Shown piece by piece: positions 2,042-41,833 of a stretch of DNA of 44,022 nt. Position 1 is the stretch's first letter. Each line of letters begins with the position of its first letter. This DNA is from Chloroflexota bacterium (GTDB lineage Bacteria; Chloroflexota; UBA6077): positions 1 through 44,022 of the forward strand of contig JBMNNU010000001.1 of the NCBI GenBank assembly GCA_050942695.1. Reading direction: 5' to 3'. Position numbers and translations under genes: made by a program. Under the pieces are notes generated by a model. The model saw only the letters and a program-made list of their open reading frames with translations, made no database searches and was not told the origin of the DNA.

Positions 2042-2236
2042 AAAGCATCTCCCAGCTTAAGCTTAGATCTGGGAAACTAAGTTGATGTTCTCGTAGAATA
2101 AATCAGCTATCGTTACTTGTCAATCATCAATTAAAATCTACATGAGTCACGGCGAATCCTGCTCTTGATGCAGATTCTGCCCTGCGGTATACTTTTGGGA
2201 CCGCTTTATGGGTATATGGAAAGGGGGTTGGGCTCG

Positions 2237-3376
2237 GTGAAGCTCTCTTGCCTTCAGGAAAACCTAGATAAAGGACTCAACATAGTCAGCAAGGCCGTTC
2301 CGGCCAAAAGCACTCTTCCTGTCCTCGGCAACGTCCTGTTGTCAACCGATCAGGGTCGGTTAAAGCTGGCAGCCACTAATCTGGAGGTGGCCATAAGCTG
2401 CTGGATCGGGGCCAAGGTGGAGGAAGAGGGTTCAATTACCGTTCCCGCTAACCTCCTAACCGAATTCGTACGCTCCCTGCCCAACGATCGAATCGATCTA
2501 TCTCTGTCTCCGCGCACCAAGACGGTGAACCTGCGCTGCGCCCGTTTCGATGCCAATATCAGGGGGATCGATGCAGAGGAGTTCCCCACCCTGCCCAGTG
2601 CAGGCGATGGGTTCAAGATACTGGTGGATGGCGTGACACTCTCTGAAAGCATCTCCCAGGTGGTCTTCGCTGCCGCATCCGACGACAGCAGGCCGGTGCT
2701 AACTGGGGTACTGGTCACCTTCAAAGAAGACAAAATGACCATGGTGGCGGCCGACGGTTTCCGCATGGCTGTCAAAACGACACCTCTGGGCTCCGCAGTG
2801 GAGCAGGAGATCAGCGTCATCGTACCTGCCAGAGCCCTGCGAGAGTTAGGGCGGATCGTGTCCGACAGCGAGGAACAGATAGAGATCTCCGTCACTTCCA
2901 ACCGCAACCAGGCGCTCTTCCGTGCCGGGAACGTTGAGCTGGTCTCTCGGCTGATAGAGGGCCAGTTCCCCCCATATGAGCGGATCATCCCCCCGCCCAG
3001 CGAGAACAAGGTAGTGGTGAGCACAGGGGAGTTTCTGAACGCCAACCGCACAGCATCCATATTTGCCCGTGACAACTCCAACATCGTCCGGTTCCAGTTT
3101 ACCCCGGGGGAGGAGGGTCTCACGGCGGGCAAGATGATCATCACCGCCACCAGCGCCGAGGTGGGCGACAACGTGGGCGAGATCGACGCAGCCATCGTCG
3201 GACAGCCACCCCAGATAGCTTTCAACAGCCGCTACCTGGATGAGCTTTTGAGGGTGTTGGAGAAGAGTTCCCAGTTGGCGCTGGATATGAACTCTTCATC
3301 TAGCCCTGGGGTGTTCCGACCTGTGGGCGACGAGGGCTACCTGCACATCATTATGCCCATGCATACGAACAGGTAG
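2237..3376 (+). CDS. dnaN: DNA polymerase III beta subunit (sliding clamp)
   Basis: The 2165..3376 ORF reads VKLSCLQENLDKGLNIVSKAV..., with LPVLGNVLL and a C-terminal MPM motif typical of DnaN. I prefer the in-frame GTG at 2237, preceded by GGAAAGGGGG. The TTG at 2165 and ATG at 2216 are alternatives. Confidence 0.92.
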   Translation: MKLSCLQENLDKGLNIVSKAVPAKSTLPVLGNVLLSTDQGRLKLAATNLEVAISCWIGAKVEEEGSITVPANLLTEFVRSLPNDRIDLSLSPRTKTVNLRCARFDANIRGIDAEEFPTLPSAGDGFKILVDGVTLSESISQVVFAAASDDSRPVLTGVLVTFKEDKMTMVAADGFRMAVKTTPLGSAVEQEISVIVPARALRELGRIVSDSEEQIEISVTSNRNQALFRAGNVELVSRLIEGQFPPYERIIPPPSENKVVVSTGEFLNANRTASIFARDNSNIVRFQFTPGEEGLTAGKMIITATSAEVGDNVGEIDAAIVGQPPQIAFNSRYLDELLRVLEKSSQLALDMNSSSSPGVFRPVGDEGYLHIIMPMHTNR

Positions 3377-4737
3377 TGCATCTACAACAGTTGTCCCTCG
3401 CCAATTTCCGCAGCTACAGGCAGCTCGAACTCGAGTTGCCCTACCCCATTGTTCTGCTACAGGGCAACAACGGACAGGGAAAGAGCAACCTGCTGGAGGC
3501 TATCTATTTCCTAGCTACTACCCGGTCCCTACGGGCAGGATCCGATAGAGAGCTGATCAACTGGGAAGCCTTGGAAGAGCCCATCCCCTTTGCGCGCGTT
3601 GCCGGAACCGTTAAAAAGACCAGAGGCGACCTGAGGGTGGAGATAGCCATCCGCGCCGACCGGCCGGAACGAGCTGGCGCAGCCCTAGGGGAATCCGGCG
3701 GTACCCCGTTGGGGCTATCCAAGCGGATCAAGATCAACGGCGTAGCGAAGCGAGCGCTGGACCTCCTGGGGCAGATCAATGTAGTGATGTTCTCTCCACA
3801 GGACCTGGAACTGATCACCGGCTCCCCTTCCATCCGTCGCCGCTATCTCGATATCGTCAACTGCCAGGTAGACCGTCGCTACTGCCGGGCTTTGCAGCAG
3901 TACAACCGGGTGCTCCACCAGCGAAACCACCTTTTGAAGCAGATACGCGATGGCAAACAGCCCATTGAGACGCTGGAGTTCTGGAGCGAGGAGTTGGTGA
4001 AGAGTGGGGCTTACCTGCTTTGGCGACGGCTGGAGACAGTAGCGGCGCTAAACGGCTGGCTAGAGAGCTACTTCCACCGACTGACGAGAACGGGGAAGCG
4101 GCTGAAGATGGCCTATCGGTCTACAGTGGATGAGGCTGTGGGAGGCGCGGAGACGCGGGGACACAGGGACGGACCCCACCCCCTGCCCCTCCCCCACAGG
4201 GAGAGGGGAGATGAACTGGCTCTCACTGAGGGAGAGCGTGAACGTGCCAGAGGACACGTTCACGGGGGTGAGGGGGAACTAGCTCAGGACTCAGGACTCA
4301 GGACTCAGGACCCGCAACTCACCGAGACGGCCGAGCTGTTCAGGGAGGCTTTGCGCCGCTACCGCAGGCGAGAAACGCTCCAGGGGGTATCTCTATTGGG
4401 GCCCCACCGGGATGACCTAGTCTTCCGCGCAGATGGTATCGACATGAACGTCTACGGTTCTCGCGGCGAGCAGAGGGCGGTGGCGTTGGCGCTCAAGCTG
4501 TCGGAGGTGGAGTTCCTGCAAGAAGCCACTGGAGAATGGCCTCTCCTGCTGCTAGACGACGTGATGTCGGAGCTCGATCCCTCCCGCAGACTGCTGCTGC
4601 TGGAGACCATCGGCTCGTCGGGGCAAACCCTGATCACCACCACAGAGCTGGAGTCATTCTCACCGAAGTTCCTGGCTAGCGCTGCGCTTTTCGAAATCCA
4701 TCAGGGCACGGTGGTGCTAACGCGCAAACCTGCATAG
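3376..4737 (+). CDS. recF: DNA replication/repair protein RecF, carrying an ~57-codon low-complexity insertion
   Basis: N-terminus MHLQQLSLANFRSYRQLEL..GNNGQGKSNLLEAIYFL (Walker A), later GPHRDDL and LLLLDDVMSELD (Walker B). The GTG start shares one nucleotide with the dnaN stop (TAGTG). It is 453 aa, whereas RecF is usually about 360-370 aa. Confidence 0.9.
   Translation: MHLQQLSLANFRSYRQLELELPYPIVLLQGNNGQGKSNLLEAIYFLATTRSLRAGSDRELINWEALEEPIPFARVAGTVKKTRGDLRVEIAIRADRPERAGAALGESGGTPLGLSKRIKINGVAKRALDLLGQINVVMFSPQDLELITGSPSIRRRYLDIVNCQVDRRYCRALQQYNRVLHQRNHLLKQIRDGKQPIETLEFWSEELVKSGAYLLWRRLETVAALNGWLESYFHRLTRTGKRLKMAYRSTVDEAVGGAETRGHRDGPHPLPLPHRERGDELALTEGERERARGHVHGGEGELAQDSGLRTQDPQLTETAELFREALRRYRRRETLQGVSLLGPHRDDLVFRADGIDMNVYGSRGEQRAVALALKLSEVEFLQEATGEWPLLLLDDVMSELDPSRRLLLLETIGSSGQTLITTTELESFSPKFLASAALFEIHQGTVVLTRKPA
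4141..4311 (+). repeat. Composite repeat inside recF: CGGAGAC-like heptamers, 42-nt GC-hairpin core, 9-bp perfect hairpin, (CTCAGGA)x4
   Basis: Core 4171-4212 is ggaccccaccccctgcccctcccccacagggagaggggagat. Hairpin is gtgaacgtg(4238-4246)/cacgttcac(4255-4263). Four exact tandem CTCAGGA copies lie at 4283-4310. A 72-nt stretch matches the reverse complement of 29188-29259 at 66/72. Confidence 0.85.
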
Positions 4738-6334: not shown

Positions 6335-7345
6335 ATGACAAACGGGAGTTCCAAGCAGCGGATCAGGCTCGGACCCAGCCAGCGGGCCTTCGGCTTCTTC
6401 CCTCTGTTCGATCCAAGAGAGGGGATTACTATCGTAGAGCCTCTGGGGGCCGGCAAAGGCTGGTGGGCAGGGGCTCCTAGCGTTCTCTACGACGCGGAGC
6501 AAGACACCTTCTACGTTTCCTACCGACAAAGGCGGCCCAGGGAATTAGGCCGCGGTGGCGAGACCCGCATCGCCGCCAGCCGCGACGGCGTAACCTTTAA
6601 GGACATTTGGAGCGCCACTAAAGATACCTTCGACTCCCCCTCCATCGAGCGTTGCTCCCTAGTAAAAACTCCGCAGGGGAGATATCGGCTGTACGTGAGC
6701 TTCGTAGACGGCGCCGACGGTCGCTGGCGGATCGACGTACTGGAGGCCGCCGTAATCGAAGAGTTAAATCCATCTGAAAGGATACGGGTCTTGACCGCCG
6801 ACGATATAGATGGGGAAGGGGTGAAGGATCCGTACGTCTTCATGCTGGGGCCCTGCTGGTACATGCTGGCAAGCTGCACCCCAAAACCCGACGTCCTCAC
6901 CCCGGACGTCGCCAGCAGGATGCACGCCACCGCCGATATCTACAACACCGGCATCGTTAAATCGCTCACAGGCCTGGCATACAGCCACGATGGGCTCCAC
7001 TGGCAGTGGGAGGGATTCGTTCTCACGCCGCCGGAGCGTGGATGGGATGCCTACTGCACTCGAATAGGGGCTTTTTTATACCGACCGCCCGTCTTCACCG
7101 CTTTCTACGATGGCTCTGCCAGCGTTGAGGGCAACTACGAGGAGCGGACCGGTATAGCCGTCAGCACCGACCTGCGCAGTTGGCGGCGGGTTTCCGTCGA
7201 TGGCCCTGTTTTAACCTCTCCCAACGCTTCCGGTTCCCTGCGATATCTGGACGCCATAGAGGTCAACGGGGCTCTCTATTACTACTACGAGTTCGCTCGC
7301 GAGGATGGCTCCCACGAGCTTCGGGTGAGCAGGGTAAGGTTGTAA
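6335..7345 (+). CDS. Hypothetical protein, probable five-bladed beta-propeller glycoside-hydrolase-like fold (GH43/GH32/GH130-like)
   Basis: Recurrent blade-like motifs SRDGVTF, VKDPYVF, SHDGLHW and ERTGIAVSTDLRSW. RBS GGAGGGAG precedes the ATG. The family assignment is by eye only. Confidence 0.45.
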   Translation: MTNGSSKQRIRLGPSQRAFGFFPLFDPREGITIVEPLGAGKGWWAGAPSVLYDAEQDTFYVSYRQRRPRELGRGGETRIAASRDGVTFKDIWSATKDTFDSPSIERCSLVKTPQGRYRLYVSFVDGADGRWRIDVLEAAVIEELNPSERIRVLTADDIDGEGVKDPYVFMLGPCWYMLASCTPKPDVLTPDVASRMHATADIYNTGIVKSLTGLAYSHDGLHWQWEGFVLTPPERGWDAYCTRIGAFLYRPPVFTAFYDGSASVEGNYEERTGIAVSTDLRSWRRVSVDGPVLTSPNASGSLRYLDAIEVNGALYYYYEFAREDGSHELRVSRVRL

Positions 7346-7349
7346 CGAT

Positions 7350-8522
7350 ATGGCAACCTCAGTAGAGAAGATGGATGGAGAACGGCGAACAATCGGGATA
7401 GGCCTGCTCGGCTACGGTATGATGGGCCGCGCGCACAGCAGCGCCTTTCGTCGCCTACCCCAGTTTTTTGCGCCTCTACCCCTTGAGCCCCAACTGGTGG
7501 CCGCAGCCGCCAGGTCCGAAGATAAGCTGGCAGAGCTAGCCGGTCGCTTCGGTTACGCAACCTGCTACCGAAACTGGGAGGATCTGCTGGCCGATGAGCG
7601 AGTGGAGATCTTCGACAACAGCGGCCCCAACCACCTCCACGCGGAACCATGCATCGCTGCCGCAAAGGCCGGCAAACATATAATCTGCGAGAAGCCGCTT
7701 GCTCGGAGCGCAGCGGAAGCCAAAAGGATGCTGCTGGCGGCGCAGGAAGCGGGCGTCAAGCACCTTTGCGGCTTCAATTACCGCTTCCTGCCGGCCGTTC
7801 GGCTGGCGAGACAACTAGTGGAGGAGGGCAAGCTGGGCAGGATCTATCACTTCCGGGCTCGCTACCTGAACCCCGCCATGGCGGATCCATCCACCCCCTA
7901 CAGATGGAGGCTGGATAAGGATATTGCGGGTTCCGGGGTCCTTGGGGACATCGGGTCTCACATTATCGACCTGGCCAGGTTCCTGGTGGGCGAGCCTGCC
8001 GAGGTGGCCGCTTCCACCGATATCTTCGTGCCGGAGCGGCCTCTGGAGGGCGACCCATCCCGCACCGGGAAGGTGACCACCGACGACGCCTTCCAGGCCA
8101 TGGTTCGTTTTGCCGGTGGCGCCACCGGAATGCTGGAGGCCTCAAGGGTGTGTCTGGGGAGCCAGAACCGCCTGGAGTTCGAGATGAACGGGTCGGAGGG
8201 TAGCGTCCAGTTCAGCCTGGAGAGGATGAACGAGCTGAGGGTATACCTGAAGCAGGACGAGGCATCTAACCTTGCAGGCTTCCGCCAGGTGATCGTAACG
8301 GGGGCTGATCATCCCTACCTGCGCAGGTGGTGGCCGCGGCACCCGTTGGGCTGGGACCACACCTTCGTCCACGAGATAGCCCACTTCCTGGAGGCCGTGG
8401 CCGGGGAGCACGAGGTGGCTCCCTATGGCGCCACCTTCGAGGACGGCTATCGCGCAGCGGTCGTATGCGACGCCATCATAAAATCGGCCGAAACCGGCAC
8501 CTGGGCCAAAATTGAGTACTGA
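7350..8522 (+). CDS. Gfo/Idh/MocA family NAD(P)-dependent oxidoreductase
   Basis: IGIGLLGYGMMGRAH (Rossmann GxGxxG region) and ICEKPLARSAAEAKRML (EKP motif). The start is 4 nt after the upstream stop. Confidence 0.88.
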   Translation: MATSVEKMDGERRTIGIGLLGYGMMGRAHSSAFRRLPQFFAPLPLEPQLVAAAARSEDKLAELAGRFGYATCYRNWEDLLADERVEIFDNSGPNHLHAEPCIAAAKAGKHIICEKPLARSAAEAKRMLLAAQEAGVKHLCGFNYRFLPAVRLARQLVEEGKLGRIYHFRARYLNPAMADPSTPYRWRLDKDIAGSGVLGDIGSHIIDLARFLVGEPAEVAASTDIFVPERPLEGDPSRTGKVTTDDAFQAMVRFAGGATGMLEASRVCLGSQNRLEFEMNGSEGSVQFSLERMNELRVYLKQDEASNLAGFRQVIVTGADHPYLRRWWPRHPLGWDHTFVHEIAHFLEAVAGEHEVAPYGATFEDGYRAAVVCDAIIKSAETGTWAKIEY

Positions 8523-8632
8523 AAAAAGCAGATCCAGGGCACTCAACGCTGCGCTCGCTCGCGTCACGAGGTGTCCCAAAAACTCTATCCTAACAATAAT
8601 CTCGATCTACAGGTCAGTAAAAAGAGGGCCAA

Positions 8633-9598
8633 ATGAAGCTGGGCATCTTTACAACGCTATTTCAGGATAGGCCCCTCGGCCAGGTGCTCCGCCTGGCTGC
8701 GGAGCTGGGCTACGAGACGGTGGATTTACCCTGCTTCAGGGGAAATCCTCACGTGGACATCGACGAGGTGATCGAAGACCGGGGTAGGAGCCTGAGCAGG
8801 TTGGTGCGAGGCTTTGGCCTGGAGATCTCGGCTCTGGGCAACGGTCGGGAGAGCCAATTGATCCTCGGCCCTCACGATTGGACGATGGACCACTGGTCAC
8901 CGGTACAGGGAGCGGAGGAAAGGATCAACTATGCCACGGAGCGGCTGAAGCGGACCGCTCAGGCGGCCGCGATGCTGGGGGTACCGGTGGTGAACGGCTT
9001 CTCCGGGTCGCCAGTGTGGGATAAATGGTACAACTTCCCCTCCACAAACGAGGAGGCCTACGAGCGCGGCTGGCAGCTTTTCGCTGAGCGGTTCAACCCC
9101 ATCCTGGACAGCTTCAAAGAGTACGGCGTGCGCTACGCCTACGAAGTCCACCCAACGGAGATCGCCTACAATCTCGAAACGGCGGAGCGGGCTCTGGATG
9201 CGCTGGATCACCGTCCTGAGTTCGGCTTCACTTTCGACCCCAGCCACCTGATATGGCAGGGGATCGACCCGGTGGTGTTCATCAAACGGCTGGGCAAGCG
9301 GATCTACCACGCCCACGCTAAAGACGGCGAGGTGCAGGCCGACGAGGTAGCCAGGGCGGGAGTGCTCAGCGGCGGCTCGTGGACTCGCCCGGACAGGGGC
9401 TTTCGCTTCCGCGTGCCGGGCTGGGGAAACGTGAACTGGCGGCGAGTCATCAGTGCCCTGGTAGCCGTTGGCTACGACTACGTCCTGTCGTTCGAGCATG
9501 AGGACCCGGTGATGTCACCCGAGGACGGGGCTGAAAAGGCTATCGCCTTCCTACGGCCGCTGGTCATCAAAAAGCCAATCCAGAGCGTGTGGTGGTGA
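8633..9598 (+). CDS. Sugar phosphate isomerase/epimerase (xylose-isomerase-like TIM barrel) family protein
   Basis: MKLGIFTTLF...LAAELGYETVDL, ..YAYEVHPTEIAYN.., ..HAHAKDG.., ..LSFEHED are typical AP_endonuc_2/TIM-barrel metal-site motifs. Confidence 0.82.
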   Translation: MKLGIFTTLFQDRPLGQVLRLAAELGYETVDLPCFRGNPHVDIDEVIEDRGRSLSRLVRGFGLEISALGNGRESQLILGPHDWTMDHWSPVQGAEERINYATERLKRTAQAAAMLGVPVVNGFSGSPVWDKWYNFPSTNEEAYERGWQLFAERFNPILDSFKEYGVRYAYEVHPTEIAYNLETAERALDALDHRPEFGFTFDPSHLIWQGIDPVVFIKRLGKRIYHAHAKDGEVQADEVARAGVLSGGSWTRPDRGFRFRVPGWGNVNWRRVISALVAVGYDYVLSFEHEDPVMSPEDGAEKAIAFLRPLVIKKPIQSVWW

Positions 9599-9613
9599 GA
9601 GAAGCTACTAAGA

Positions 9614-9642
9614 TTGACAAGGTTAAGCCTCAATCTTAGAAT
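9614..9642 (+). promoter_or_regulatory. Sigma-70-type promoter: TTGACA, 17-nt spacer, TAGAAT
   Basis: TTGACA at 9614-9619, exactly 17 nt of spacer, TAGAAT at 9637-9642. It lies in the 235-nt gap before the 9834 gene. A perfect 10-bp inverted repeat (9608-9617 / 9630-9639) overlaps both hexamers. Confidence 0.6.
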
Positions 9643-9652
9643 GGTGGTAGTT

Positions 9653-9669
9653 AGGATATAACATTATAC
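9653..9669 (+). promoter_or_regulatory. Candidate GntR/HutC operator AGGATATAACATTATAC (contains the palindrome TATAAcaTTATA)
   Basis: The 17-nt sequence is identical to the reverse complement of 23197-23213. Both copies sit 10-12 nt downstream of a TTGACA-17-TAGAAT promoter and face the downstream gene. Confidence 0.55.
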
Positions 9670-9833
9670 TGTCATACCTTTATTCACCCTCAAGTGGGGA
9701 TGCCCCCTTCAACAGTGAGCTAGAGGGTGATGCGACATCCTGCTTCATATTGGGCGGCTAAGCTGTTATCCGATCTTGGGCGTTCTTGGCCAGACCTTTA
9801 ATCACGGCCATTATCCTTTGGGAGGAAGCCAAG

Positions 9834-10907
9834 ATGGATCCTATCCGTTATGGGGTTATCGGCGTGGGCGCCGTAACTTTACGTGCGCATCTCCCAGTGT
9901 TGGCCATGATGGAGGATGTGGAGATCGTGGCGCTCTGCAATCCATCCCGCCCCAAGGCTGAGCAGGGAGTCGAACTGTGCCGCTCCAGCCCCGACATCTA
10001 TGAGGACTATCGAGACCTGCTGGCAAGGCCCGACATCGATGCGGTAGTCATCGCCTCCCCCAACCACACCCACAAAGAGATCACCCTGGCGGCCCTATCT
10101 GCGGGTAAGCATGTACTGTGCGAGAAACCGATGGCTACCAACGAAGGCGACTGCTTCGCCATCCAAGCCGCTGCTCGCAAGTCTAGCCCCATACTTCAAT
10201 ATGGCATGGAATTTCGTTACTCCGACTTCTATGCCAAAGTAGCCCAGATCGTCCAGAGCGGCGAGATAGGCCATCCAAGGATGATGTTCTGCCGCGAGTT
10301 CCGGTGGCCGATGCTTCCCGGTTCGAGAGGATGGCGTACGGACAACCGCCTCTCAGGCGGGACGTTGCTCGAAAAGAACTGCCATCACTTCGACCTGTTC
10401 AACTGGTTTGCCGGCTCGAGAGCGGTCAGGGTGGTAGCAATGGGGGGAAGTGATGTAAACACCAACGAGCAGATCGACAACGCCTGGGTGGTGGTGGAGT
10501 ACGCCAACGGGGTACGCGGATGCCTGGGACTCTGCCTCTTCTCCCCCTATGGAAACGACCTGGAGGTGAGCGTTATAGGCGATCGAGGCAAGGTAGAGTC
10601 CTTTGCCTATAACCAGGTAATACATCAGTGGGGCGCTGACAAGCCCGACAAGACGGTGTACAACGTGGCTTTCGACCCCCTGTTTGGGGATATCGCCCAG
10701 GAGCCCCGTGAGAAGGAGCGTTCCATCATCTGGGAGAGAAGCATGATCTACCGGGAGCATCGAGCCTTCATAGTGAGCATTCGGACCGGAAAGCAACCCG
10801 TCACCAACGTTACTGTTGCTATCCAGAGCTGCCTGGTTCCGCTAGCTGCTCAGAGGGCTCTGAAAACCGGGCAGGTTGTCACATTAGCTATCCCGGGCAG
10901 CGTGTAA
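9834..10907 (+). CDS. Gfo/Idh/MocA family oxidoreductase
   Basis: MDPIRYGVIGVGAV..., ..VLCEKPMATNEGDC... I prefer the ATG at 9834, preceded by GGGAGGAAG, over the upstream TTG at 9786. Confidence 0.86.
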   Translation: MDPIRYGVIGVGAVTLRAHLPVLAMMEDVEIVALCNPSRPKAEQGVELCRSSPDIYEDYRDLLARPDIDAVVIASPNHTHKEITLAALSAGKHVLCEKPMATNEGDCFAIQAAARKSSPILQYGMEFRYSDFYAKVAQIVQSGEIGHPRMMFCREFRWPMLPGSRGWRTDNRLSGGTLLEKNCHHFDLFNWFAGSRAVRVVAMGGSDVNTNEQIDNAWVVVEYANGVRGCLGLCLFSPYGNDLEVSVIGDRGKVESFAYNQVIHQWGADKPDKTVYNVAFDPLFGDIAQEPREKERSIIWERSMIYREHRAFIVSIRTGKQPVTNVTVAIQSCLVPLAAQRALKTGQVVTLAIPGSV

Positions 10908-10944
10908 GTAAACCAGACCAGACAAGGTGATAGGAGGAGGAGAC

Positions 10945-11769
10945 ATGGCGGTTGCAACAGGCCGGCTTCCGGCAAACAAGCGTAAGCAACAACAGAGTGG
11001 TTCCCTCGCTACGCGAAAGCGGGCTATCATCAGCATCGCCTCGCTGGTGACCCTTTTCATCGCTTACGCGATTGTGAGCAACTCTGGGAGGGTGAACGCC
11101 ACACTTTTTCCGCCCCCCCAGGCTGTAGTAAGCGCGGCCATCGCACTGTTTGCGGAGGAGAATCTCTCGATCGATATCCTCACCAGCCTGGGCCGTGTGC
11201 TCACCGGCTACACTATCGGCGTGACCCTCGCCATCCTTTTAGGAGCCCTGATGGGGTGGTTCTGGCTGGTGGACGCTGTTTTCGATCCCATCGTGGAGCT
11301 CATCCGGCCGGTGCCTCCTCTAGCCTACATACCGCTGATGATTCTCTGGTTCGGCATTGACGAAACACCGAAGATCATGGTGATCACCCTCGGCTGCTTC
11401 GTTAGCTGCATTATCAACGTCGTCGCAGGAGTCAAGAACACCCCACTGGTATATATCGAGGCTGCCCGCACTATGGGAGCCAAGAGCAAGGACCTCTTCT
11501 TCACCGTGGCCATACCCTCCGCCCTGCCATACATCCTGACGGGTATGAGGGTCGCATTAGGCACTGCGTGGGCGATCCTGGTAGCCGCAGAGCTGATCGC
11601 TGCGCAGCGAGGCTTGGGATTCATGATGACCAATGCCCGCCGGTTTATCCGAACAGACTCAATAATCGTGGGGATCATCTGCATCGGCCTCCTGGCCTTT
11701 CTCATGGATAGAGCCCTACGCTATGTCAACATCCGGCTGACTTGCTGGATGGAACGCCGGGAGGGGTAA
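10945..11769 (+). CDS. ABC transporter permease, NitT/TauT (SsuC/TauC/ThiX-like) family
   Basis: Multi-TM protein with the EAA-loop region IEAARTMGAKSKDLFFTVAIPSALPYILTGMRVALG. ATG at 10945 follows AGGAGGAGG. Confidence 0.85.
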   Translation: MAVATGRLPANKRKQQQSGSLATRKRAIISIASLVTLFIAYAIVSNSGRVNATLFPPPQAVVSAAIALFAEENLSIDILTSLGRVLTGYTIGVTLAILLGALMGWFWLVDAVFDPIVELIRPVPPLAYIPLMILWFGIDETPKIMVITLGCFVSCIINVVAGVKNTPLVYIEAARTMGAKSKDLFFTVAIPSALPYILTGMRVALGTAWAILVAAELIAAQRGLGFMMTNARRFIRTDSIIVGIICIGLLAFLMDRALRYVNIRLTCWMERREG

Positions 11770-11772
11770 GCG

Positions 11773-12573
11773 ATGGCGATGGATAATCCTCAGACCAAAA
11801 TCGAATGCCAGCACATCACTCACATATTCGAAAAGGGGGACGAGGAAGGCACCATGGCCCTGCAGGATGTCTCCCTTGAGGTCTACGACAGCGAGTTCCT
11901 CTGCCTGCTTGGCCCCAGCGGGTGCGGCAAGACCACGTTACTGCGAATCGTCGCCGGCCTGGTGGTTCCAACAGACGGGATAGTATTGCTGGACGGGCAG
12001 CCCAGCATGGGACCCGATGCCAACAAGGGAATGGTCTTCCAGCGAGATGCGACCTTTCCATGGCTGACGGTGGAGCAGAATGTCGAGTATCCGCTGAAGC
12101 TGCACGGGGTGCCCCGAAGCGATCGCCAGAGCATCGTGCATAAATACATACAACTGGTTGGGCTGACCGGCTTTGAGAAAGCCTATCCCAAGGAGCTATC
12201 GGGGGGCATGCGCAAGCGGGTGGACATCGCCCGCACCTACGCTTACAACCCCAAGGTTTTGCTGATGGACGAGCCCTTCGGGTCGCTGGATCTCTTCACT
12301 AAGACACGAATGCAGGCGGAGCTGCTGGATCTGTGGAGCAAAGAGCGGAAAACGGTGGTGTTCGTCACCCATGACCTGGACGAGGCCATCTTCTTGGCCG
12401 ACCGGGTGGCGGTTATGAGCAAACGGCCGGGGCGCATTCGCGAGATACTGGAGATCAATCTGCCACGGCCCCGCAACGTCGATGTGAAGGTCTCGGAGTC
12501 CTTCGGCTCTATACGGCGAAGACTCTGGGAGCAGTTCGAGGATGAATTCGGCGTCTCTCAAGCCGACGGGTAA
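11773..12573 (+). CDS. ABC transporter ATP-binding protein, NitT/TauT (SsuB/TauB-like) family
   Basis: Walker A GPSGCGKTT, signature LSGGMRKRV, Walker B LLMDEPFGSLD, plus VFQRDATFPWLTV. The start is 3 nt after the permease stop. Confidence 0.9.
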   Translation: MAMDNPQTKIECQHITHIFEKGDEEGTMALQDVSLEVYDSEFLCLLGPSGCGKTTLLRIVAGLVVPTDGIVLLDGQPSMGPDANKGMVFQRDATFPWLTVEQNVEYPLKLHGVPRSDRQSIVHKYIQLVGLTGFEKAYPKELSGGMRKRVDIARTYAYNPKVLLMDEPFGSLDLFTKTRMQAELLDLWSKERKTVVFVTHDLDEAIFLADRVAVMSKRPGRIREILEINLPRPRNVDVKVSESFGSIRRRLWEQFEDEFGVSQADG

Positions 12574-12713
12574 GTCGCTCTGCAATGCGCTCTACATAAG
12601 GGAGGTGATAGAAAGCAGAAAAACGTGGTCGCGCTAGACGTTCCTCGGCAAATCGCGGATCTCTTGTTGCTCGCGTCTCCATTACGTGTAGTCGAAAGCA
12701 AAGGAGTTACGGC

Positions 12714-13895
12714 ATGAGGAAGGTAACCCATCTACGCGCCATAGCGATACTATCGACCCTATCTCTAGTAGTATGCCTCGCGGCCGCCTGTGGAAGTACT
12801 GCCCCTGCCCCTGCCGCGACGGCTGCGCAGCCAGCCGCGTCCACCGCTGCCGCTCCCAAAGCGGCTGAGCCGACTAAAGCCTCCGCTGCAGCTCCAACAG
12901 CCGCGACCAAAGCCGAGCCAACTAAGGCTGCCGCTCCCGCCCAGCTCACCAAGCTGCGGGTGGGGTGGGCCATAGCACCCCATATGTCTCTGCAGGGCTT
13001 GGCGTTGCAAAAAGGTTGGTTTAAGGAAGCGGGGTTGGATGTAGAGTTAACAGCGTTCGACACCGGCGCCCCGTTGTTCGAGGCGATGGCCGCGGGTAAG
13101 CTGGACATGGGCATAACCGGTAGCACACCCACCATCAGTACAGCCGCCGCTCAGGCGCCGGCCATCTACTTCGTCGGCTCCCACGGCGAGTCCACCGACG
13201 TGTTCACTGTCGTCTCCCGCAAAAGCATAGAGAAACCGGCCGACGTGAAGGGCAAGACGGGGATTACAGCCAAGGGTTCGGTAAACCACTATTTCCTCGA
13301 TCTTATGCTCGAGAAGTACGGCATGACGGAGAAGGACATCACCCTGATCCATATGGAGATGGCCGACGCCGTGACGGCTTTCGTAGCAAACCAGGGCGAC
13401 TTCGCATCCATCGGCACGGCCTTCTGGCCGCAGATCCTGGACAAATCTGATGATGCTAAGATCCTCTTCACAGGGAAGGATCTTGGTAGCTCGGATGGCA
13501 AGGCGCTGAAGACAAAGATGGTCGAAGTGACCACCGCATCAAAGACATTTGCCGATCAGAATCCAGAGGCTGTGACCAAATTCGTAGACGTTCTGTACAA
13601 CCGCACTCACAAATACTTCAACGATCCGGCCACTAAACAGACAGCTCACCAGGAGCTGCAGGCCTGGCTGAAGACTGCAGTCAACTTCAACGGCACACTC
13701 GAAGAGCTGAGCGCGATGCTCAACCCGGTGAAATACTACACCTGCTCCGAGCAGATCAAGCTGTTCGAGGACGGAACGTTCAAGGCCAGTATCGACGCAC
13801 AGGCTCAGTACCTACTGGATACCAACAAACTGAAGAGCGCGTTCACCTTCGAATCGTACGCCAAGCCTGATTTCGTCAAGGCAGCGGCCAAGTAA
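12714..13895 (+). CDS. ABC transporter substrate-binding lipoprotein, NMT1/THI5-like (SsuA/TauA/ThiY) family, paralog 1
   Basis: Lipobox-like LSLVVCLAAACGS, then an Ala/Pro/Thr tether, then LRVGW..AP...LALQKGWFKEAGLDVEL..FDTGAPLFEAMAAGKLDMG. RBS AAAGGAG. Confidence 0.82.
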   Translation: MRKVTHLRAIAILSTLSLVVCLAAACGSTAPAPAATAAQPAASTAAAPKAAEPTKASAAAPTAATKAEPTKAAAPAQLTKLRVGWAIAPHMSLQGLALQKGWFKEAGLDVELTAFDTGAPLFEAMAAGKLDMGITGSTPTISTAAAQAPAIYFVGSHGESTDVFTVVSRKSIEKPADVKGKTGITAKGSVNHYFLDLMLEKYGMTEKDITLIHMEMADAVTAFVANQGDFASIGTAFWPQILDKSDDAKILFTGKDLGSSDGKALKTKMVEVTTASKTFADQNPEAVTKFVDVLYNRTHKYFNDPATKQTAHQELQAWLKTAVNFNGTLEELSAMLNPVKYYTCSEQIKLFEDGTFKASIDAQAQYLLDTNKLKSAFTFESYAKPDFVKAAAK

Positions 13896-14008
13896 TACAT
13901 AGTGCACCTATGAGGAGGTGAACGGAAAAAAAGGTCTCGGCTACTCATTCTCACCTGAATCTCGGTATATAGCCGTCGTGAAGGCATAGTCGAAAAAGGA
14001 GATACTTC

Positions 14009-15193
14009 ATGAGAACGTTCGGCAGCCGAATGGGAGTCACATTACTGGTCTCTCTGTTAGCGATGAGCCTGTTAGTAGCCTGCGGACCCGCCCCTGCTCC
14101 AGCGCCGACGACCAAGCCTGCGGCAGCGCCAACTACTGCTCCCGCCGCTCCAAAAGCTGCCGAGCCGACTAAAGCCTCCGCTGCAGCTCCAACAGCCGCG
14201 GCCAAAGCCGAGCCGGCAAAAGAAGCTTCCCCGGCTCAACTAACCAAGGTGCGTGTGGGTTGGACGGTGGCTCCCCACCAGGCGTTGGCGGGGGTAGCCC
14301 TGAAGAAGGGTTGGTTCAAGGAGGCAGGGCTGGATGTCGAATTAATCGCCTTCGATACGGGCGCCCCTCTGTTCGAGGCTATGGGAGCGGGAAAGCTTGA
14401 TATGGGGATGAGTGGCAGCACGCCGCCCATCAGCGTGGCTGCGGCTGGGGCTGTGCCTCTCTATCTCGTAGGTACACACGCCGAGTCCACAGAGCTGTTC
14501 ACTATGATCTCGAGAAAGGACATCAAGGACATTACGGAACTGAAGGGGAAAACCGGTATAACAGCTAAGGGCTCGGTGAACCACTATTTCCTGGCAGTGG
14601 TGCTGGAAAAGGTTGGTCTCACGGAAAAGGATATCACCCTGATCCACATGGAGCAGGTGGATGCCGTGACGGCCTTCATAGCTAACCAGGGCGACTTTGC
14701 ATCTCTTGGCACCGCCTTCTTCCCGCAGATCCTGGAAAAATCCGATAACACCAAGATCCTAATCACCGGCAAGGATCTGCCCAACCCACCGGGCAAGCCC
14801 CTCAAGACCAAGCTGATGGAGTTGCACACCGTTCACAAACCCTTTGCCGATGAGAATCCCGACGCTGTCACCAAATACATAGACGTGCTGTACAACCGTA
14901 CCCACGCCTACTTCAACGACGAATCGACAAAGGCGACGGCGCGCCAGGAATTAGCCGATTGGCTAAAGACTACCGTCAACATCAACCAATCCGTCGAAGA
15001 GCTAAGTGAGATGCTAGAACCGGCCAACTACTACTCTGCGGAAGAGCAGCTAAAGATGTTCCAGGACGACACCTTCAAGGTGAGCATCGATACCCAGGTC
15101 AACTATCTTGTAGACACCAATAGGATCAAGAACCGCCTTGAATTCGCGTCCTGGGCCAATCCCAAATTCGTGGAGGCCGCGTCTAAAAAGTAG
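14009..15193 (+). CDS. ABC transporter substrate-binding lipoprotein, NMT1/THI5-like family, paralog 2 (tandem duplicate)
   Basis: It has the same architecture and length as 12714-13895 and is roughly two-thirds identical by eye. The lipobox is LLVACGP. The tether peptide AAPKAAEPTKASAAAPTAA.KAEP is shared, as is the 5' UTR motif tagtcgaaa..aaggag. Confidence 0.82.
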   Translation: MRTFGSRMGVTLLVSLLAMSLLVACGPAPAPAPTTKPAAAPTTAPAAPKAAEPTKASAAAPTAAAKAEPAKEASPAQLTKVRVGWTVAPHQALAGVALKKGWFKEAGLDVELIAFDTGAPLFEAMGAGKLDMGMSGSTPPISVAAAGAVPLYLVGTHAESTELFTMISRKDIKDITELKGKTGITAKGSVNHYFLAVVLEKVGLTEKDITLIHMEQVDAVTAFIANQGDFASLGTAFFPQILEKSDNTKILITGKDLPNPPGKPLKTKLMELHTVHKPFADENPDAVTKYIDVLYNRTHAYFNDESTKATARQELADWLKTTVNINQSVEELSEMLEPANYYSAEEQLKMFQDDTFKVSIDTQVNYLVDTNRIKNRLEFASWANPKFVEAASKK

Positions 15194-15204
15194 GTAATCG
15201 AGAG

Positions 15205-15247
15205 TGTAGCGCTACAATCCCCCCTTCCCTCCCTTTGGGAAGGGGGG
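15205..15247 (+). repeat. Two adjacent stem-loops after the second binding-protein gene (12-bp palindrome plus 11-bp GC hairpin)
   Basis: tgtagcgctaca at 15205-15216 is a perfect palindrome. cccccttccc-type arm 15219-15229 pairs with gggaagggggg 15237-15247 across a 7-nt loop. No T-run follows, so it is not a classical terminator. Confidence 0.55.
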
Positions 15248-15280
15248 AAGATGTTACCTTTACCCTGAGGGAGGTTGCTC

Positions 15281-16960
15281 ATGATAGGCGCTGATCTAGT
15301 GGCCCACGCCCTCAAAGCCCACGGGGTCACCTTTATCTCTGCCCTGGTAGGCAACGGGATCAACCCGGTGCTTTTCTCGGCTCGCCAGGCTGGAATCAAG
15401 GTTGTGGATACCCGCAACGAGCAGACGGCATCCTTTATGGCGGAGAGTTACGGCCGCTTCACCTGCCGAGTAGGTGTCTGCGCCGTGAGCAGCGGCGGAG
15501 GCCATACCAACGCCCTATCCGGCCTGGTAAACGCCCATCTGGGCAACGCCCCGATGCTACTGATCTCCGGCTGCAGCGATCACAATCTCACCGATCGTGG
15601 CAAGTTCCAGGACTTTGTCGACCAGGTGGCCATGGCTGCACCGGTAACCAAGTACGCCCGGTTGGTGGATCGGCCCGAGAAGATCCCCTTCTATATCCAC
15701 GAGGCCCTGGCTCACTCTGTAGCCGGCACTCCCGGCCCTGTACATCTCACCATCCCGGAGGATGTGCTGGATGCCGATGTATCGAATGACTTGATCACAC
15801 CAATCTCTGCTGCCACTAACGCTATAGTGGAGCAGCGATGTGTTGGCGATTCAAGATTGATCGAGGAGGCCGCTTCAGCAATAGCAGCAGCAGAGCGTCC
15901 ATTGATGGTTGCCGGCAATGGGGTCTTCTACGCCCACGGCGAGGATGCTCTGGCTGAGTTTGCTGCGATCGCAGATATCCCCGTAGTCGTGCCCATTTGG
16001 GATAGGGGATCCATTCCCAATCCCATTCCTCAATTCATGGGGGTTATCGGCTCAGCATCCGGCAGCCCAGATATCCTGCAGGATGCCGACCTGGTCCTGA
16101 TCCTTGGAGCGCAGGTAGACTACCGGCTCGGCTTCCTCCAGCCACCAGCCGTGCGAGCCGATGCGAAGGTGATCCGGGTCGACATCGACCCCCTACGGCT
16201 ACGCCAGGCGACCGATCCGCACATCGCGATCCTTGGCGACCCCAGGTCGGTTCTTGAGCAGTTGTCAGCCCGACTCCAGGGGGTATCCATGCCCGCACAC
16301 GCAGATTGGTTGGAGGAGGCGCGAAACCGAGACATGGACTTCCGAGAGCGATGGAGGGGATCGGCTATCAGGTGGGATGCCCCTGCCAACGGTTTGGCGT
16401 TAGTGGAGGCTATACGGCCGTTCGTACAGGGAGACGCCATCTTTCTGGTAGACGGCGGCAACATCGGCCAATGGATGCACATGGTGCTCTGCGACCGCTA
16501 CCCCGGGCACTGGATGACCTGTGGCGCCAGCGGCGTTGTGGGGTATGGCCTTGGAGCGGCAATGGCTGCCAGGATCGCTTACCCTTCCCGACCCGTCATC
16601 CTGCTTTCGGGTGACGGGTCGATGGGTTTCAACATAGCCGATCTCGAAAGCGCAGTCCGGCAGAAGCTGCCCTTCGTCGCAGTGGTGGCCGACGATCGTG
16701 CCTGGGGGATCACGGTCTCGAACCAGTTGGTCCAATACGGTAGTGAGAACATGGTAGGTTGCACTTTGGGCGCCATTCGCTTCGACCTCGCAGCCGAAGC
16801 CTTCGGTGCAATCGGGGTTCGAGTGGAGAACCCGCGAGAGATAGGAGCTGCCATCGAGCGAGCGCTGGCAGCGGACCGGCCGACGTTGATCCAGGTGCCG
16901 GTGCTCCATGGCGGTCCGGCGGATTCCCAGACCCTGTCGGCCAGTGTCGAATGCTGCTGA
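15281..16960 (+). CDS. Thiamine-pyrophosphate-dependent enzyme (acetolactate synthase / oxalyl-CoA decarboxylase-like superfamily), specificity unknown
   Basis: The N-terminal Pyr domain has ...DTRNEQTASFMAESYGR...GGGHTNALSGLVNA. The C-terminal TPP-binding region has LLSGDGSMGFNIADLE...VVADDRAWG. ATG at 15281 follows GGGAGG. Confidence 0.82.
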   Translation: MIGADLVAHALKAHGVTFISALVGNGINPVLFSARQAGIKVVDTRNEQTASFMAESYGRFTCRVGVCAVSSGGGHTNALSGLVNAHLGNAPMLLISGCSDHNLTDRGKFQDFVDQVAMAAPVTKYARLVDRPEKIPFYIHEALAHSVAGTPGPVHLTIPEDVLDADVSNDLITPISAATNAIVEQRCVGDSRLIEEAASAIAAAERPLMVAGNGVFYAHGEDALAEFAAIADIPVVVPIWDRGSIPNPIPQFMGVIGSASGSPDILQDADLVLILGAQVDYRLGFLQPPAVRADAKVIRVDIDPLRLRQATDPHIAILGDPRSVLEQLSARLQGVSMPAHADWLEEARNRDMDFRERWRGSAIRWDAPANGLALVEAIRPFVQGDAIFLVDGGNIGQWMHMVLCDRYPGHWMTCGASGVVGYGLGAAMAARIAYPSRPVILLSGDGSMGFNIADLESAVRQKLPFVAVVADDRAWGITVSNQLVQYGSENMVGCTLGAIRFDLAAEAFGAIGVRVENPREIGAAIERALAADRPTLIQVPVLHGGPADSQTLSASVECC

Positions 16961-17046: not shown

Positions 17047-17095
17047 AAAAAAAGCCGCTCACCCATGTTGATCAATGTGGGTGAGCGGCTTTTCT
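17047..17095. terminator. Bidirectional rho-independent terminator between convergent genes
   Basis: 13-bp stem agccgctcaccca (17053-17065) / tgggtgagcggct (17078-17090) with a 12-nt loop. It is flanked by a 7-A run upstream and TTTCT downstream. It lies between stop codons at 16960 (+) and 17103 (-). Confidence 0.8.
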
Positions 17096-19014: not shown

Positions 19015-19245
19015 CTAGCATCCGCCTGCAATCGGCGGAAATAGTTCCACCTTACTTCCATCTTGCAGGACGGCGTCGGGGAGCGCGCCCCTTCCGTCCA
19101 GGTATAGAGTTCCTACCTCGCCGCTGGGTATCCGCAGGGCTGCAATAAGGTCGGATACCGTTGACCCTCCCTCCAGGTCTACCGTGATATCCTTGCCGTT
19201 CCCATACGTGCTCAAGTGTCCGGCTAAACGCACATTTATCTTCAC
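19015..19245 (-). CDS. MoaD/ThiS-family ubiquitin-like sulfur-carrier protein ending in GGC
   Basis: VKINVRLAGHL...GSTVSDLIAAL...VLQDGSKVELFPPIAGGC, 76 aa. GTG at 19245 follows GGGGAG; TTG at 19266 is the alternative. It ends 40 nt upstream of the AOR start. Confidence 0.72.
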   Translation of the reverse strand: MKINVRLAGHLSTYGNGKDITVDLEGGSTVSDLIAALRIPSGEVGTLYLDGRGALPDAVLQDGSKVELFPPIAGGC

Positions 19246-19427: not shown

Positions 19428-20231
19428 TTAACCAAGTCCAAGCAATTTTGCCATGGTGCCGCCGAAGATTTTTGATTGGATCCCGGTGTCTAAACCTAAC
19501 CCATCGAAAATGCGCTTATGGTCCGCCAGGGCCCACTCCATTTCAGAATAATGGACGTCGGTGCCAAAAACAATCTTCTCGTATGCGCCCGGCCAGAAGA
19601 AGAGATTTCTGTAGAAAGACAACGGCTTGTGAGACCTCCAACCCTGCTTTCCTCCGGTCAGGTCCAGGTATACGTTGGGGTTAAAGCGGGCTAGCTCAGA
19701 GGCTTCCTCATACCAGGGCAGCCCAAGGTGAGCGGCGATGATGGCCAGATCCGGAAAGGAGCGGGCGATACCATCCAGGAATACAGGCCGCATCCGGGCC
19801 GAGGACACGTTGTGCTTGTGGTCGTCCGCGAGCCGCACCACCATCCCCGTGTGGAACAGGATCGGCATACCCAATCGCTGAGCTCGCTCGTAGACAGGGT
19901 AGTAGGAGGGATCATCGTAGTTGGACAGGGGGCGGTGCAGCTTCAGGGCTTTGAAGCCCTGTGCATGTAGCTCGTCTACCAAGCGGGGGTCGTCTCTCCC
20001 CAATCGGAAATAGGCGAAGCCGACTATCCTATCCGGGTACAGCTCGAAAGCGTGGCGAACGTCTTCGTTGGTGACGGCCCCCGGTAGGCCGGACCCGTCG
20101 GAGAAGAGGCCGGTGAAATCAGACAGGGCCGACAGACACACACGGTCGATACCGAGCCTGGTGCACTCCTCCAACATCCGCGGCAGGTAGTCCCTTTGAT
20201 TCAGCAGGTGGTGGTGCGCGTCGATGATCAT
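19428..20231 (-). CDS. Amidohydrolase-2-type metal-dependent TIM-barrel hydrolase (lactonase/decarboxylase-like)
   Basis: Starts MIIDAHHHLL (HxH metal motif), with later ...ILFHTG.. and ..FGTDV... The ATG at 20231 overlaps the upstream stop as ATGA, so the longer 20360 start is unlikely. Confidence 0.8.
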   Translation of the reverse strand: MIIDAHHHLLNQRDYLPRMLEECTRLGIDRVCLSALSDFTGLFSDGSGLPGAVTNEDVRHAFELYPDRIVGFAYFRLGRDDPRLVDELHAQGFKALKLHRPLSNYDDPSYYPVYERAQRLGMPILFHTGMVVRLADDHKHNVSSARMRPVFLDGIARSFPDLAIIAAHLGLPWYEEASELARFNPNVYLDLTGGKQGWRSHKPLSFYRNLFFWPGAYEKIVFGTDVHYSEMEWALADHKRIFDGLGLDTGIQSKIFGGTMAKLLGLG

Positions 20232-21076
20232 GATTGCTGGTATCCTACTGTAAGACGGTCGGCGACGATCTGCCAGTCCGGATGGTCGCGGATCAGTGTT
20301 GCGGGATACTCCACCGTCGGCTCCAGAAAAAGGGCAGCTCGCAGCGCCGTTCGCTGCCAAAGCCCGCCATCGCAGTAAAGCCGGATTCGCCGCGCCCCCA
20401 GGATCTGCTTCATGCCCATGGTGACGGCCATAGGAGGGAAACCGGCAACATCACCACCCGTCCACCTGGCGGCCCCCATGACAACCGTTTCCGGGTTGAG
20501 GAAGACCACCCTTGGCATGCTCCCTTTGAACTCCTCAGCGCTGACCCGCCAGAGTCCGTGAATCGGCGGTTCGTTGAAAGCCACGTGGCAGTGGATGCCG
20601 ATGCCCCCGTAGCAGATGTCTATTCCGCCCACCCGATCGATCTCATCCACAAGCTCATCCAAGTGGAAAGGGTGAGGGAAGTGGAGCTGGCGCTCCGGCA
20701 GCCTCAACCCCGGTGCCAACCGGTCGAATAGGGCCTCCCGAGCCTGCCCGGCGAAGCTGAGAGGGTGATCTGAGGGGATCGGCCTTCCCTGCCAATCGAG
20801 ATACTCGTCCATGAAGAATATGTGCGCGTTGGCCCAGCTAATCTTCCTGCGATTGCATATCTCTGCCAGCAGTGGATACTGGTCTTTAGGTCCCAGTGGA
20901 AGGATCAGCCGGGTGAGTCTCCCGGCGGCGTTGTTGCCCTCCAGTTCGGTTGCTATCGCCTCGGCGAAGTGGAGGTGGAGAGATGGAACGTCGGGCACGA
21001 CGACCAGATGATCCTCCGCCTCTCTCTCGATATCCTCGGGCGGCAGGCTCGTTAGTTCCTTTAGAGTGTGGCCCAT
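20228..21076 (-). CDS. NagB/6-phosphogluconolactonase-family sugar-phosphate deaminase/isomerase
   Basis: ...RLILPLGPKDQYPLLAEI......ISWANAHIFFMDEY... resembles the glucosamine-6-phosphate deaminase fold motif (F.MDEY). Confidence 0.7.
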   Translation of the reverse strand: MGHTLKELTSLPPEDIEREAEDHLVVVPDVPSLHLHFAEAIATELEGNNAAGRLTRLILPLGPKDQYPLLAEICNRRKISWANAHIFFMDEYLDWQGRPIPSDHPLSFAGQAREALFDRLAPGLRLPERQLHFPHPFHLDELVDEIDRVGGIDICYGGIGIHCHVAFNEPPIHGLWRVSAEEFKGSMPRVVFLNPETVVMGAARWTGGDVAGFPPMAVTMGMKQILGARRIRLYCDGGLWQRTALRAALFLEPTVEYPATLIRDHPDWQIVADRLTVGYQQS

Positions 21077-41778: not shown

Positions 41779-41795
41779 GTATCGCTCCCGATATA

Positions 41796-41809
41796 TATCG
41801 CTTGCGATA
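41796..41809. promoter_or_regulatory. 14-bp palindrome TATCGC-TT-GCGATA just upstream of padR; candidate operator
   Basis: Perfect 6-bp arms, 18 nt upstream of the preferred PadR ATG, embedded in an ATATATAT stretch. A second perfect 10-bp palindrome ACATCGATGT lies at 41825-41834. Confidence 0.4.
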
Positions 41810-41833
41810 CAATACTCATGTTCCACATCGATG

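Follow-up and report, generated by a model that had tools for sequence, protein, structure and literature searches.

The closest described counterparts of the system considered here are NagR (YvoA) of Bacillus subtilis and DasR of Streptomyces (comparison structures PDB 2WV0, 4U0V, 4WWC and 4ZS8). NagR blocks transcription from dre operators until glucosamine 6-phosphate or N-acetylglucosamine 6-phosphate releases it through a large displacement of the DNA-binding domains, and its base-specific contacts are made by Arg38, Arg48 and the wing residue Gly69 (PMC4333415). The canonical operator of the HutC subfamily reads NyGTMTAKACNy, with GT and AC 4 nt apart, and GntR-family palindromes typically have, 7-12 nt from the centre of the site, an additional weaker box; the survey that reports these patterns analysed no HutC regulator from Chloroflexi, for which its FadR/HutC/YtrA counts are 6/0/1 (PMC4494728). 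In Corynebacterium glutamicum, the GntR-type regulator IolR represses the myo-inositol genes (Klaffl et al. 2013, as cited in PMC9603128). Here we describe a stretch of 44,022 nt from a Chloroflexota bacterium (the whole of contig JBMNNU010000001.1 of assembly GCA_050942695.1, positions 1 to 44,022; hereafter the window), in which an operon that encodes a GntR/HutC regulator and a second operon 13.5 kb away begin with the same promoter and the same 17-nt sequence (17-mer). The 17-mer is probably the conserved core of a ~28-bp operator of this regulator, which would act as an autoregulated repressor that co-controls both operons.

Two promoters followed by the same 17-mer

The elements of the two sites and the regulator gene are as follows.

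9614-9619, plus strand: -35 hexamer TTGACA of the promoter of the operon for an oxidoreductase, an ATP-binding cassette (ABC) importer and a thiamine-diphosphate (TPP) enzyme, from sequence reading and a sigma-70-type scan
9637-9642, plus strand: -10 hexamer TAGAAT of the same promoter, after a 17-nt spacer, from the same evidence
9653-9680, plus strand: putative operator 1, AGGATATAACATTATACTGTCATACCTT; the 17-mer AGGATATAACATTATAC is 9653-9669
23254-23249, minus strand: -35 hexamer TTGACA of the regulator's own promoter, from sequence reading and the sigma-70-type scan
23231-23226, minus strand: -10 hexamer TAGAAT of the regulator's own promoter, after a 17-nt spacer, from the same evidence
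23213-23186, minus strand: putative operator 2 (autoregulatory), AGGATATAACATTATACCTTGATAACGT; the 17-mer is 23213-23197
22379-23155, minus strand: GntR/HutC regulator, NagR/YvoA-like, with Pfam GntR winged helix-turn-helix and UTRA domains

The 17-mer is identical at both sites, has the same orientation toward the downstream gene, and holds the inverted repeat TATAA-CA-TTATA. It starts 10 nt after the -10 hexamer at site 1 and 12 nt after it at site 2. The two promoters are the top two sigma-70-like matches between 6000 and 25000, each agreeing with the consensus at 11 of 12 positions. Exactly two matches to the 17-mer occur in the window, even with up to 3 mismatches allowed; 0.03 are expected by chance from dinucleotide-preserving shuffles, and two or more matches arose in 0 of 100 shuffles. 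Similarity between the sites runs beyond the 17-mer (24 nt at 88% in a repeat search, which gave no other pair for the motif). The hexamers and operator aside, no similarity was found between the two regions in the spacers, the stretches from -10 to 17-mer or the flanks, so the pair is not a duplicated segment. A first-pass annotation, made from the letters of the window, had described these promoters, the identical 17-mer and its inverted repeat; all of its coordinates are exact on sequence reading, and the gene content that it named at both loci is correct by Pfam.

Good scores in a position weight matrix (PWM) scan of the window were found only at the two sites and at the second box of site 1, with no operator upstream of 6335, 7350 or 8633. 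An additional hit at 19177-19193 (minus strand, 15.9 bits) was taken as chance: the stretch is coding sequence of a MoaD/ThiS-like ORF, and scores of up to 19.0 bits arise when the window is shuffled base by base.

The 258-aa regulator belongs to the HutC subfamily, judged by its domains and contact residues. The GntR winged helix-turn-helix (PF00392, 70.7 bits) covers residues 11-73, and the UTRA effector domain, of chorismate-lyase fold (PF07702, 125.3 bits), covers residues 95-231. The nearest solved relative is B. subtilis NagR/YvoA, which aligns over the full length (E 1e-52); DasR matches at E 4e-35. The three base-contacting residues of NagR align with Arg37, Arg47 and Gly68 of the regulator, of which Arg47 and Gly68 are invariant among 38 orthologues, and the recognition helix reads SRITVRQA, compared with SRMTVRQA in NagR. 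Upstream of the regulator's promoter are an HU gene and its terminator, and among the genes of the window no further regulator gene is near either operator site.

Conservation of the site in related loci

For comparison, 168 related loci (2.09 Mb in total) were fetched, and all orthologous loci with upstream DNA were used. The closest relatives of the regulator (59-88% identity) come from Chloroflexota metagenome-assembled genomes (MAGs) and metagenomes; MAGs with orthologues include GCA_040960625.1, GCA_021806765.1 and UBA6077. Upstream of GntR orthologues with 59-73% identity, at eight sequence-distinct metagenomic loci, the same order of promoter, gap and operator recurs: TTGACA, 16-18 nt, TAnnAT, and then the motif 7-13 nt on. 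Counting the window and its relatives, TTGACA is kept at 13 of 13 aligned sites, and at every one of the 13 the operator lies downstream of the -10 hexamer by 7-13 nt. The flanking DNA is unalignable at all conserved loci. The sites of the relatives, by locus label, are given here.

L001 (also L002, L003 and L006): AAGATATAACATTATAC
L004 and L007: AGGATATGACAGTATAATGTTATATCCT
L005: AAGATATGACATTATAC
L086 and L087: AGGATATGACGGTATAATGTCATATCCT
L088, L089 and L090: variants of the shared site
L091: a more divergent version

L004, L007 and L086 have an exact or near-exact 17-mer on the other strand, within a near-perfect 28-bp palindrome, so the signal is orientation-independent, as expected of a DNA-binding dimer. 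The target operon is conserved as well: in L166, an orthologue with the same gene order and a first gene 78% identical is preceded by TTGACA-17-TAGAAT, 12 nt, and then AGGATATAACATTATGCTGTTATGCC. A third operon with a like promoter and operator occurs in L004 and L086, where it encodes (in L004) a sugar ABC transporter, a Fucose_iso_C-family isomerase and a xylose-isomerase-like triose-phosphate isomerase (TIM)-barrel protein; none of it is in the window. Across the 2.09 Mb, all PWM hits of at least 22 bits are upstream of a HutC regulator gene or of its adjoining operon. The PWM scan found no operator at paralogues of at most 51% identity (L008, L009, L093 and L094). Nor was an operator found at oxidoreductase orthologues of 64-66% identity (L167 and L168), which have other gene contexts, so regulon membership appears confined to closer relatives.

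The first-pass annotation had read the arrangement as a GntR protein that autoregulates and also represses the operon at 9834-16960, and comparative genomics, by phylogenetic footprinting, supports that interpretation: site, promoter and position are kept upstream of orthologues of both, while the flanks have diverged. Its two-operon regulon is likewise supported, with the third operon of the relatives to be added, and the predicted autoregulated transcript carries, besides the regulator, a pyrophosphate-dependent phosphofructokinase (PPi-PFK)-like kinase, a NagB-like protein and an amidohydrolase.

Anatomy of the putative operator

Alignment of 12 sites gives the consensus AGGATATRAC-RTTATRCY-GTYATATCCT, ~28 bp long with its dyad at position 14/15. 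Columns A1, T5, A6, T7, C10, A14, T15 and T23 are invariant; G3, A9, T13, A22 and T28 are each kept at 11 of 12 sites and A24 at 10 of 12. The conserved columns are symmetric about 14/15. Three readings of the sequence are possible: a 28-bp dyad in which 10-bp arms flank an 8-bp centre containing TATA; two overlapping 12-bp palindromes, TATRAC|RTTATR and TATRCY|GTYATA, with centres 8 bp apart; or tandem 8-bp boxes, the outer ones (GATATRAC and GTYATATC) having the G-N6-C spacing of canonical HutC cores. The 17-mer, which the first-pass annotation had taken for the whole operator, is thus a conserved part of one, namely its promoter-proximal 60% and best-conserved portion.

At site 1, a second overlapping half, TATACTGTCATA (9665-9676), completes the imperfect 28-bp dyad, and this second box scores 23.1 bits with the PWM. 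The fuller dyad is that of site 1 (9653-9680). At site 2 (23213-23186) the distal arm is degenerate, and because only 6 of its 10 positions match, the autoregulatory site may be the weaker of the two. If the transcript begins ~7 nt past the -10 hexamer, as predicted, the site would span roughly +4 to +31.

Similar palindromes also occur farther afield. Distant HutC regulators (32-39% identity) in unrelated gene contexts have TATAAC|GTTATA-type palindromes ~30-180 nt upstream of their own genes (L032, L047, L050, L058, L059, L060, L063, L069 and L073); the hosts are Trueperaceae, Rhizobiales, Anaerolineales and Caldilineaceae. In L060 the palindrome is perfect over 22 bp (CTCATTATAACGTTATAATGAG), and L059 has AAGATATAACATTATGC, at 28.5 bits. 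The recognition helix contains S-R-I-T in all three of these regulators that were checked (L032, L059 and L060), and this common helix suggests a widespread non-canonical class of HutC operator. In L082, a Hyphomicrobiales MAG, the direct repeat TGGTATT-ATAA-TGGTATT is located ~100-125 nt upstream of the HutC gene and agrees with TGGTATT, which PMC4494728 quotes as the direct-repeat motif of NagQ.

A predicted repressor site at the transcript start

In the mechanism that we propose, a dimer or two dimers of the regulator would bind the DNA just past the -10 hexamer, starting 7-13 nt after it. The bound protein would occupy DNA needed by RNA polymerase in the open complex or during promoter escape, causing a clash or block. 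Two transcripts would be repressed in this way, one for the regulator, the PPi-PFK-like kinase, the NagB-like protein and the amidohydrolase, and the other for the oxidoreductase, TauT-type ABC importer and TPP enzyme of the 9834-16960 operon. By analogy with NagR, a small-molecule intermediate of the pathway might bind the UTRA domain, displace the DNA-binding domains and so relieve repression. That the regulator represses is suggested by the placement of the site downstream of -10 at all 13 sites, a position typical of repressors, and the near-consensus promoters imply that no activator is needed.

Several observations fit this mechanism less well. The canonical HutC core GTMTAKAC is absent in any simple register, and the left box is GATATRAC despite a recognition helix nearly that of NagR. 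The 28-bp site exceeds the length covered by one NagR-type dimer. In addition, the -10 and transcript-start calls are consensus-based, in a phylum whose promoters have been little studied.

It is unlikely that the sequence is a true operator of some other transcription factor encoded elsewhere, with the GntR gene as a target and not the source of the binder. The window covers 44 kb of the genome, and the deviation from the canonical HutC core would suit such a factor, but at eight sequence-distinct loci with differing gene neighbourhoods the GntR orthologue has the site in front of it, and the site is gone at the more distant paralogues. Moreover, the distant S-R-I-T regulators of L032, L059 and L060 have TATAAC-type palindromes before their own genes, and neither site in the window adjoins another regulator gene, the PadR gene at 41386-41826 having a palindrome of its own.

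A role in RNA, with the shared sequence at the 5' end of both transcripts serving as a stabilising hairpin or as the site of an RNA-binding regulator, seems to us very improbable. The site is predicted to be transcribed, from +4 onward, and the 28-mers of some relatives fold strongly (-13.2, -11.1 and -14.5 kcal/mol, z ~ -6 to -8). However, at -3.1 and -2.0 kcal/mol (z -0.8 and -0.4) the 28-mers of the window fold no better than their shuffles; the same holds for L001, L005 and L088, and the strong hairpins are limited to the most palindromic relatives. Conservation concerns the bases of the proximal 17 nt and not their pairing, and the 17-mer flips strand in L004, L007 and L086. Rfam gave no match, either for the whole window at the gathering threshold or for 9560-9900 at E up to 1, and the 187 nt at 9650-9836, comprising the operator and the remaining 5' leader, have z = -0.6.

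We give similarly little credence to the regulator binding here as an activator or in a dual role. Activation is known for some GntR-family proteins, but a position 7-13 nt downstream of -10 at every aligned site, promoters at 11/12 consensus that should need no activator, and the repressor function of NagR and DasR, its closest characterised relatives, all argue for repression. Finally, the idea that the pair arose by chance or is left over from a mobile or dispersed repeat, with no regulatory role, can be practically discounted even though other short dispersed repeats exist in the window, as chance predicts 0.03 matches, the only two copies stand at like distances from consensus promoters, the site is kept across loci whose flanks have fully diverged, and no strong match is found away from promoters in 2.09 Mb, which also disposes of the objection, raised in the first-pass annotation itself, that the 17-mer might belong to a dispersed repeat.

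Genes of the two operons

The genes assigned to the two operons, and the palindrome between the convergent gene sets, are listed in genomic order.

9834-10907, plus strand: Gfo/Idh/MocA oxidoreductase, first gene of the target operon (Pfam; best solved relative SqgA)
10927-11769, plus strand: ABC permease, NitT/TauT type (Pfam)
11773-12573, plus strand: ABC ATPase, NitT/TauT type (Pfam)
12714-13895 and 14009-15193, plus strand: two paralogous NMT1/SsuA-like substrate-binding proteins, a tandem duplication (Pfam; repeat search)
15275-16960, plus strand: thiamine-diphosphate enzyme, acetolactate-synthase / 2-hydroxyacyl-CoA-lyase-like (below all equivalog cut-offs)
17050-17093, strand not applicable: 22+22-nt palindrome between two convergent gene sets (repeat search), likely a bidirectional terminator
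19428-20360, minus strand: Amidohydro_2 protein (Pfam; start codon uncertain)
20228-21076, minus strand: NagB/Glucosamine_iso-like protein (Pfam; nagB model 62 bits, cut-off 237)
21131-22339, minus strand: PFK-family kinase of the diphosphate-dependent PRK14072 subfamily (476.8 bits, cut-off 273)

The start of the Amidohydro_2 gene is uncertain because its open reading frame (ORF) overlaps the NagB-like ORF. The PFK-family kinase is co-located with the regulator in the orthologous loci L004 and L005. IolG, IolE, IolD, Xsc and NagB were considered as identities for the enzymes and rejected, every score being under the curated cut-off.

Immediately upstream of site 1, a plus-strand gene set at 6335-9598 encodes a 336-aa protein of no known family, a Gfo/Idh/MocA oxidoreductase and a xylose-isomerase-like TIM-barrel protein, and ends 16 nt before the -35 hexamer. 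The best PDB matches of this oxidoreductase are 6A3F (a putative dehydrogenase) and 4H3V (an oxidoreductase-domain protein), then 5YA8 (scyllo-inositol/L-glucose dehydrogenase). With no operator ahead of this gene set, its transcription might read through into the regulated operon. Beyond the amidohydrolase, a small MoaD/ThiS-like ORF (19018-19245, minus strand), ending ...PPIAGGC, is directly upstream of an aldehyde:ferredoxin oxidoreductase gene, whose annotated start it overlaps; 19420-19391 resembles a weak promoter, and the two genes may have their own promoter.

A possible sulfosugar pathway

What the regulon does can be suggested tentatively. One possibility, to which we attach a good deal of doubt, is that it represents an undescribed route for a sulfonated sugar or sulfonate in uncultured Chloroflexota, switched by the HutC regulator via an atypical 28-bp operator. 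The lead comes from the first gene of the target operon, whose product is most similar to the NAD-dependent sulfoquinovosidase SqgA: its best PDB matches are FlSqgA and ArSqgA (family GH188), full length, at E 6e-41 and 5e-40. Equivalents of SqgA Lys107, Glu189, His193 and the sulfonate-binding Arg166 are kept; Tyr136 is replaced by Phe and Lys172 by Gly, and His321 aligns with Glu. For the two binding proteins (12714-13895 and 14009-15193), the top models are SsuA/TauA sulfonate-binding ones, with scores under the cut-offs. There is no isomerase in the window, and the best NCBIfam match of the isomerase in the relatives' third operon is sulfoquinovose isomerase SftI (324 bits vs a cut-off of 700). 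In the regulator operon of relatives, the PFK-family kinase adjoins a Cgl0159/class-I-aldolase-like protein. None of the candidate sulfosugar enzymes reached an equivalog cut-off.

On this scheme, the target operon would supply the SqgA-like NAD-dependent enzyme, an SsuA/TauA-type sulfonate ABC importer and the TPP enzyme, and the other transcripts would contribute the PFK-family kinase, acting on sulfofructose, a class-I-aldolase-like or NagB-like enzyme and, in relatives, an SftI-like isomerase. As sulfofructose is the 6-sulfonate analogue of fructose 6-phosphate, a PFK-type kinase and an aldolase would mimic steps of the Embden-Meyerhof-Parnas type of sulfoglycolysis (sulfo-EMP), which are described in PMC12890257. 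The phosphate pocket of the regulator's UTRA domain might then sense the sulfonate group. GntR-family genes sit in known sulfoquinovose clusters (PMC7491151, PMC10507154), and in neither of these papers is an operator described for the GntR-family gene. The data agree about equally with inositol-like or other acidic sugars as substrates, with IolG, IolE, IolO and IolM as weak matches.

Whatever the substrate, the analysis yields a testable operator, a PWM and a predicted three-operon regulon for a HutC regulator of a Chloroflexota lineage available only from metagenomes. The regulon links a PPi-PFK-like kinase, an SqgA-like oxidoreductase, a sulfonate-type ABC importer and a TPP enzyme, and thereby gives a handle for assigning the pathway, possibly one for sulfonated sugars. 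The result is useful in annotating an uncultured lineage and mechanistically unsurprising.

Other features of the window

The contig is probably beside a chromosomal replication origin, given dnaN (DNA polymerase III beta, 2165-3376) followed by a recF-like gene (2165-4737 region). The first 2 kb have G/T-rich short repeats (168-852) and ORFs without family.

A 72-nt sequence is present in two copies, at 4141-4212 (plus strand) and 29188-29259 (minus strand), that are 92% identical and lie in frame and in sense inside two unrelated ORFs. The hosts are the RecF-like gene (453 aa) and an AcrB-like gene, in the latter at about codon 533, near the end (residue 526) of the first Pfam ACR_tran match. 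By-eye translation indicates that both copies encode roughly GGAETR..GDGPHPLPLPHRERGD, and the sequence holds the hairpin CCCCTCCCC-CACAG-GGAGAGGGG. It may be a small repeat element that is tolerated in coding sequence; no copy was found in the 168 related loci. Runs of a 7-nt G/T-rich unit (GTTCTGA / GTGCTGG / GTTCTGG) occur at 29099-29193, adjoining the 72-nt element, and at 43970-44012, the contig end, where the contig may have broken at the repeat.

A PadR-family gene (41386-41826, minus strand, GTG start) heads an efflux gene set (HlyD-like, major facilitator superfamily and ABC). The palindrome TGTATCGC..CGATATATATCG..GCGATACA at 41778-41811 overlaps the 5' end of this ORF, and it is likely the PadR autoregulatory operator if the true start codon is further downstream. 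Two HlyD-family membrane-fusion genes, at 25613-27466 and 35774-37807 (both minus strand), contain many copies of a degenerate 38-nt repeat (..GCCTGCTCTACCG), which probably reflects long repetitive coiled-coil coding sequence. The first of these genes coincides with a strong GC-skew excursion (-0.40 at 26001-27000).

Comparison with known GntR-family systems

Like NagR and DasR, the regulator is a HutC-subfamily member of the GntR family with the same domain pair, conserved contact residues and a nearly identical recognition helix. The operators of NagR and DasR also overlap promoters of catabolic and transport operons, including that of the regulator itself, and their natural sites are imperfect palindromes. 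However, regulator identity is ~42%, the operator is not dre (of the TGGTCTAGACCA type) and is ~28 bp long vs ~16, and the targets are not nagA, nagB, nagP or genes for N-acetylglucosamine transport. On these points the regulator is not an orthologue of NagR or DasR.

Like IolR, the regulator appears to be a local repressor, and the catabolic cluster of IolR includes Gfo/Idh/MocA, xylose-isomerase-like TIM-barrel and TPP enzymes, although the IolG, IolE and IolD equivalog scores here are far under the cut-offs. The IolR half-site in C. glutamicum, reportedly KGWCHTRACA, would resemble GGATATRACA of the present operator. A literature search with the motif strings returned irrelevant results only.

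With canonical HutC sites, the left box G-A-TATR-AC shares the G-N6-C spacing, and in L088 it reads GT-TATG-AC; GTMTAKAC itself is absent. The extra weaker box typical of GntR-family palindromes has a counterpart as well, in that the 12-bp palindrome TATRAC|RTTATR is accompanied, at ~11 nt from the centre, by the box GTYATA, which the target operon keeps well and which is degenerate at the autoregulatory site. Nearest in architecture is the SdhR-type HutC exception TCTTATGTCTTATATAAGACATAAGA, a 'palindrome with additional symmetry' (PMC4494728). Both are long dyads with 9-10-bp arms, an 8-bp A/T-rich centre containing TATA, and an inner overlapping symmetry; the arms differ (TTATGTC in SdhR vs ATATGAC here), and the likeness is one of architecture only. 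Set beside these systems, the proposed mechanism is an ordinary one, with a local repressor that also controls its own gene and binds across the transcript start, and the operator is somewhat atypical.

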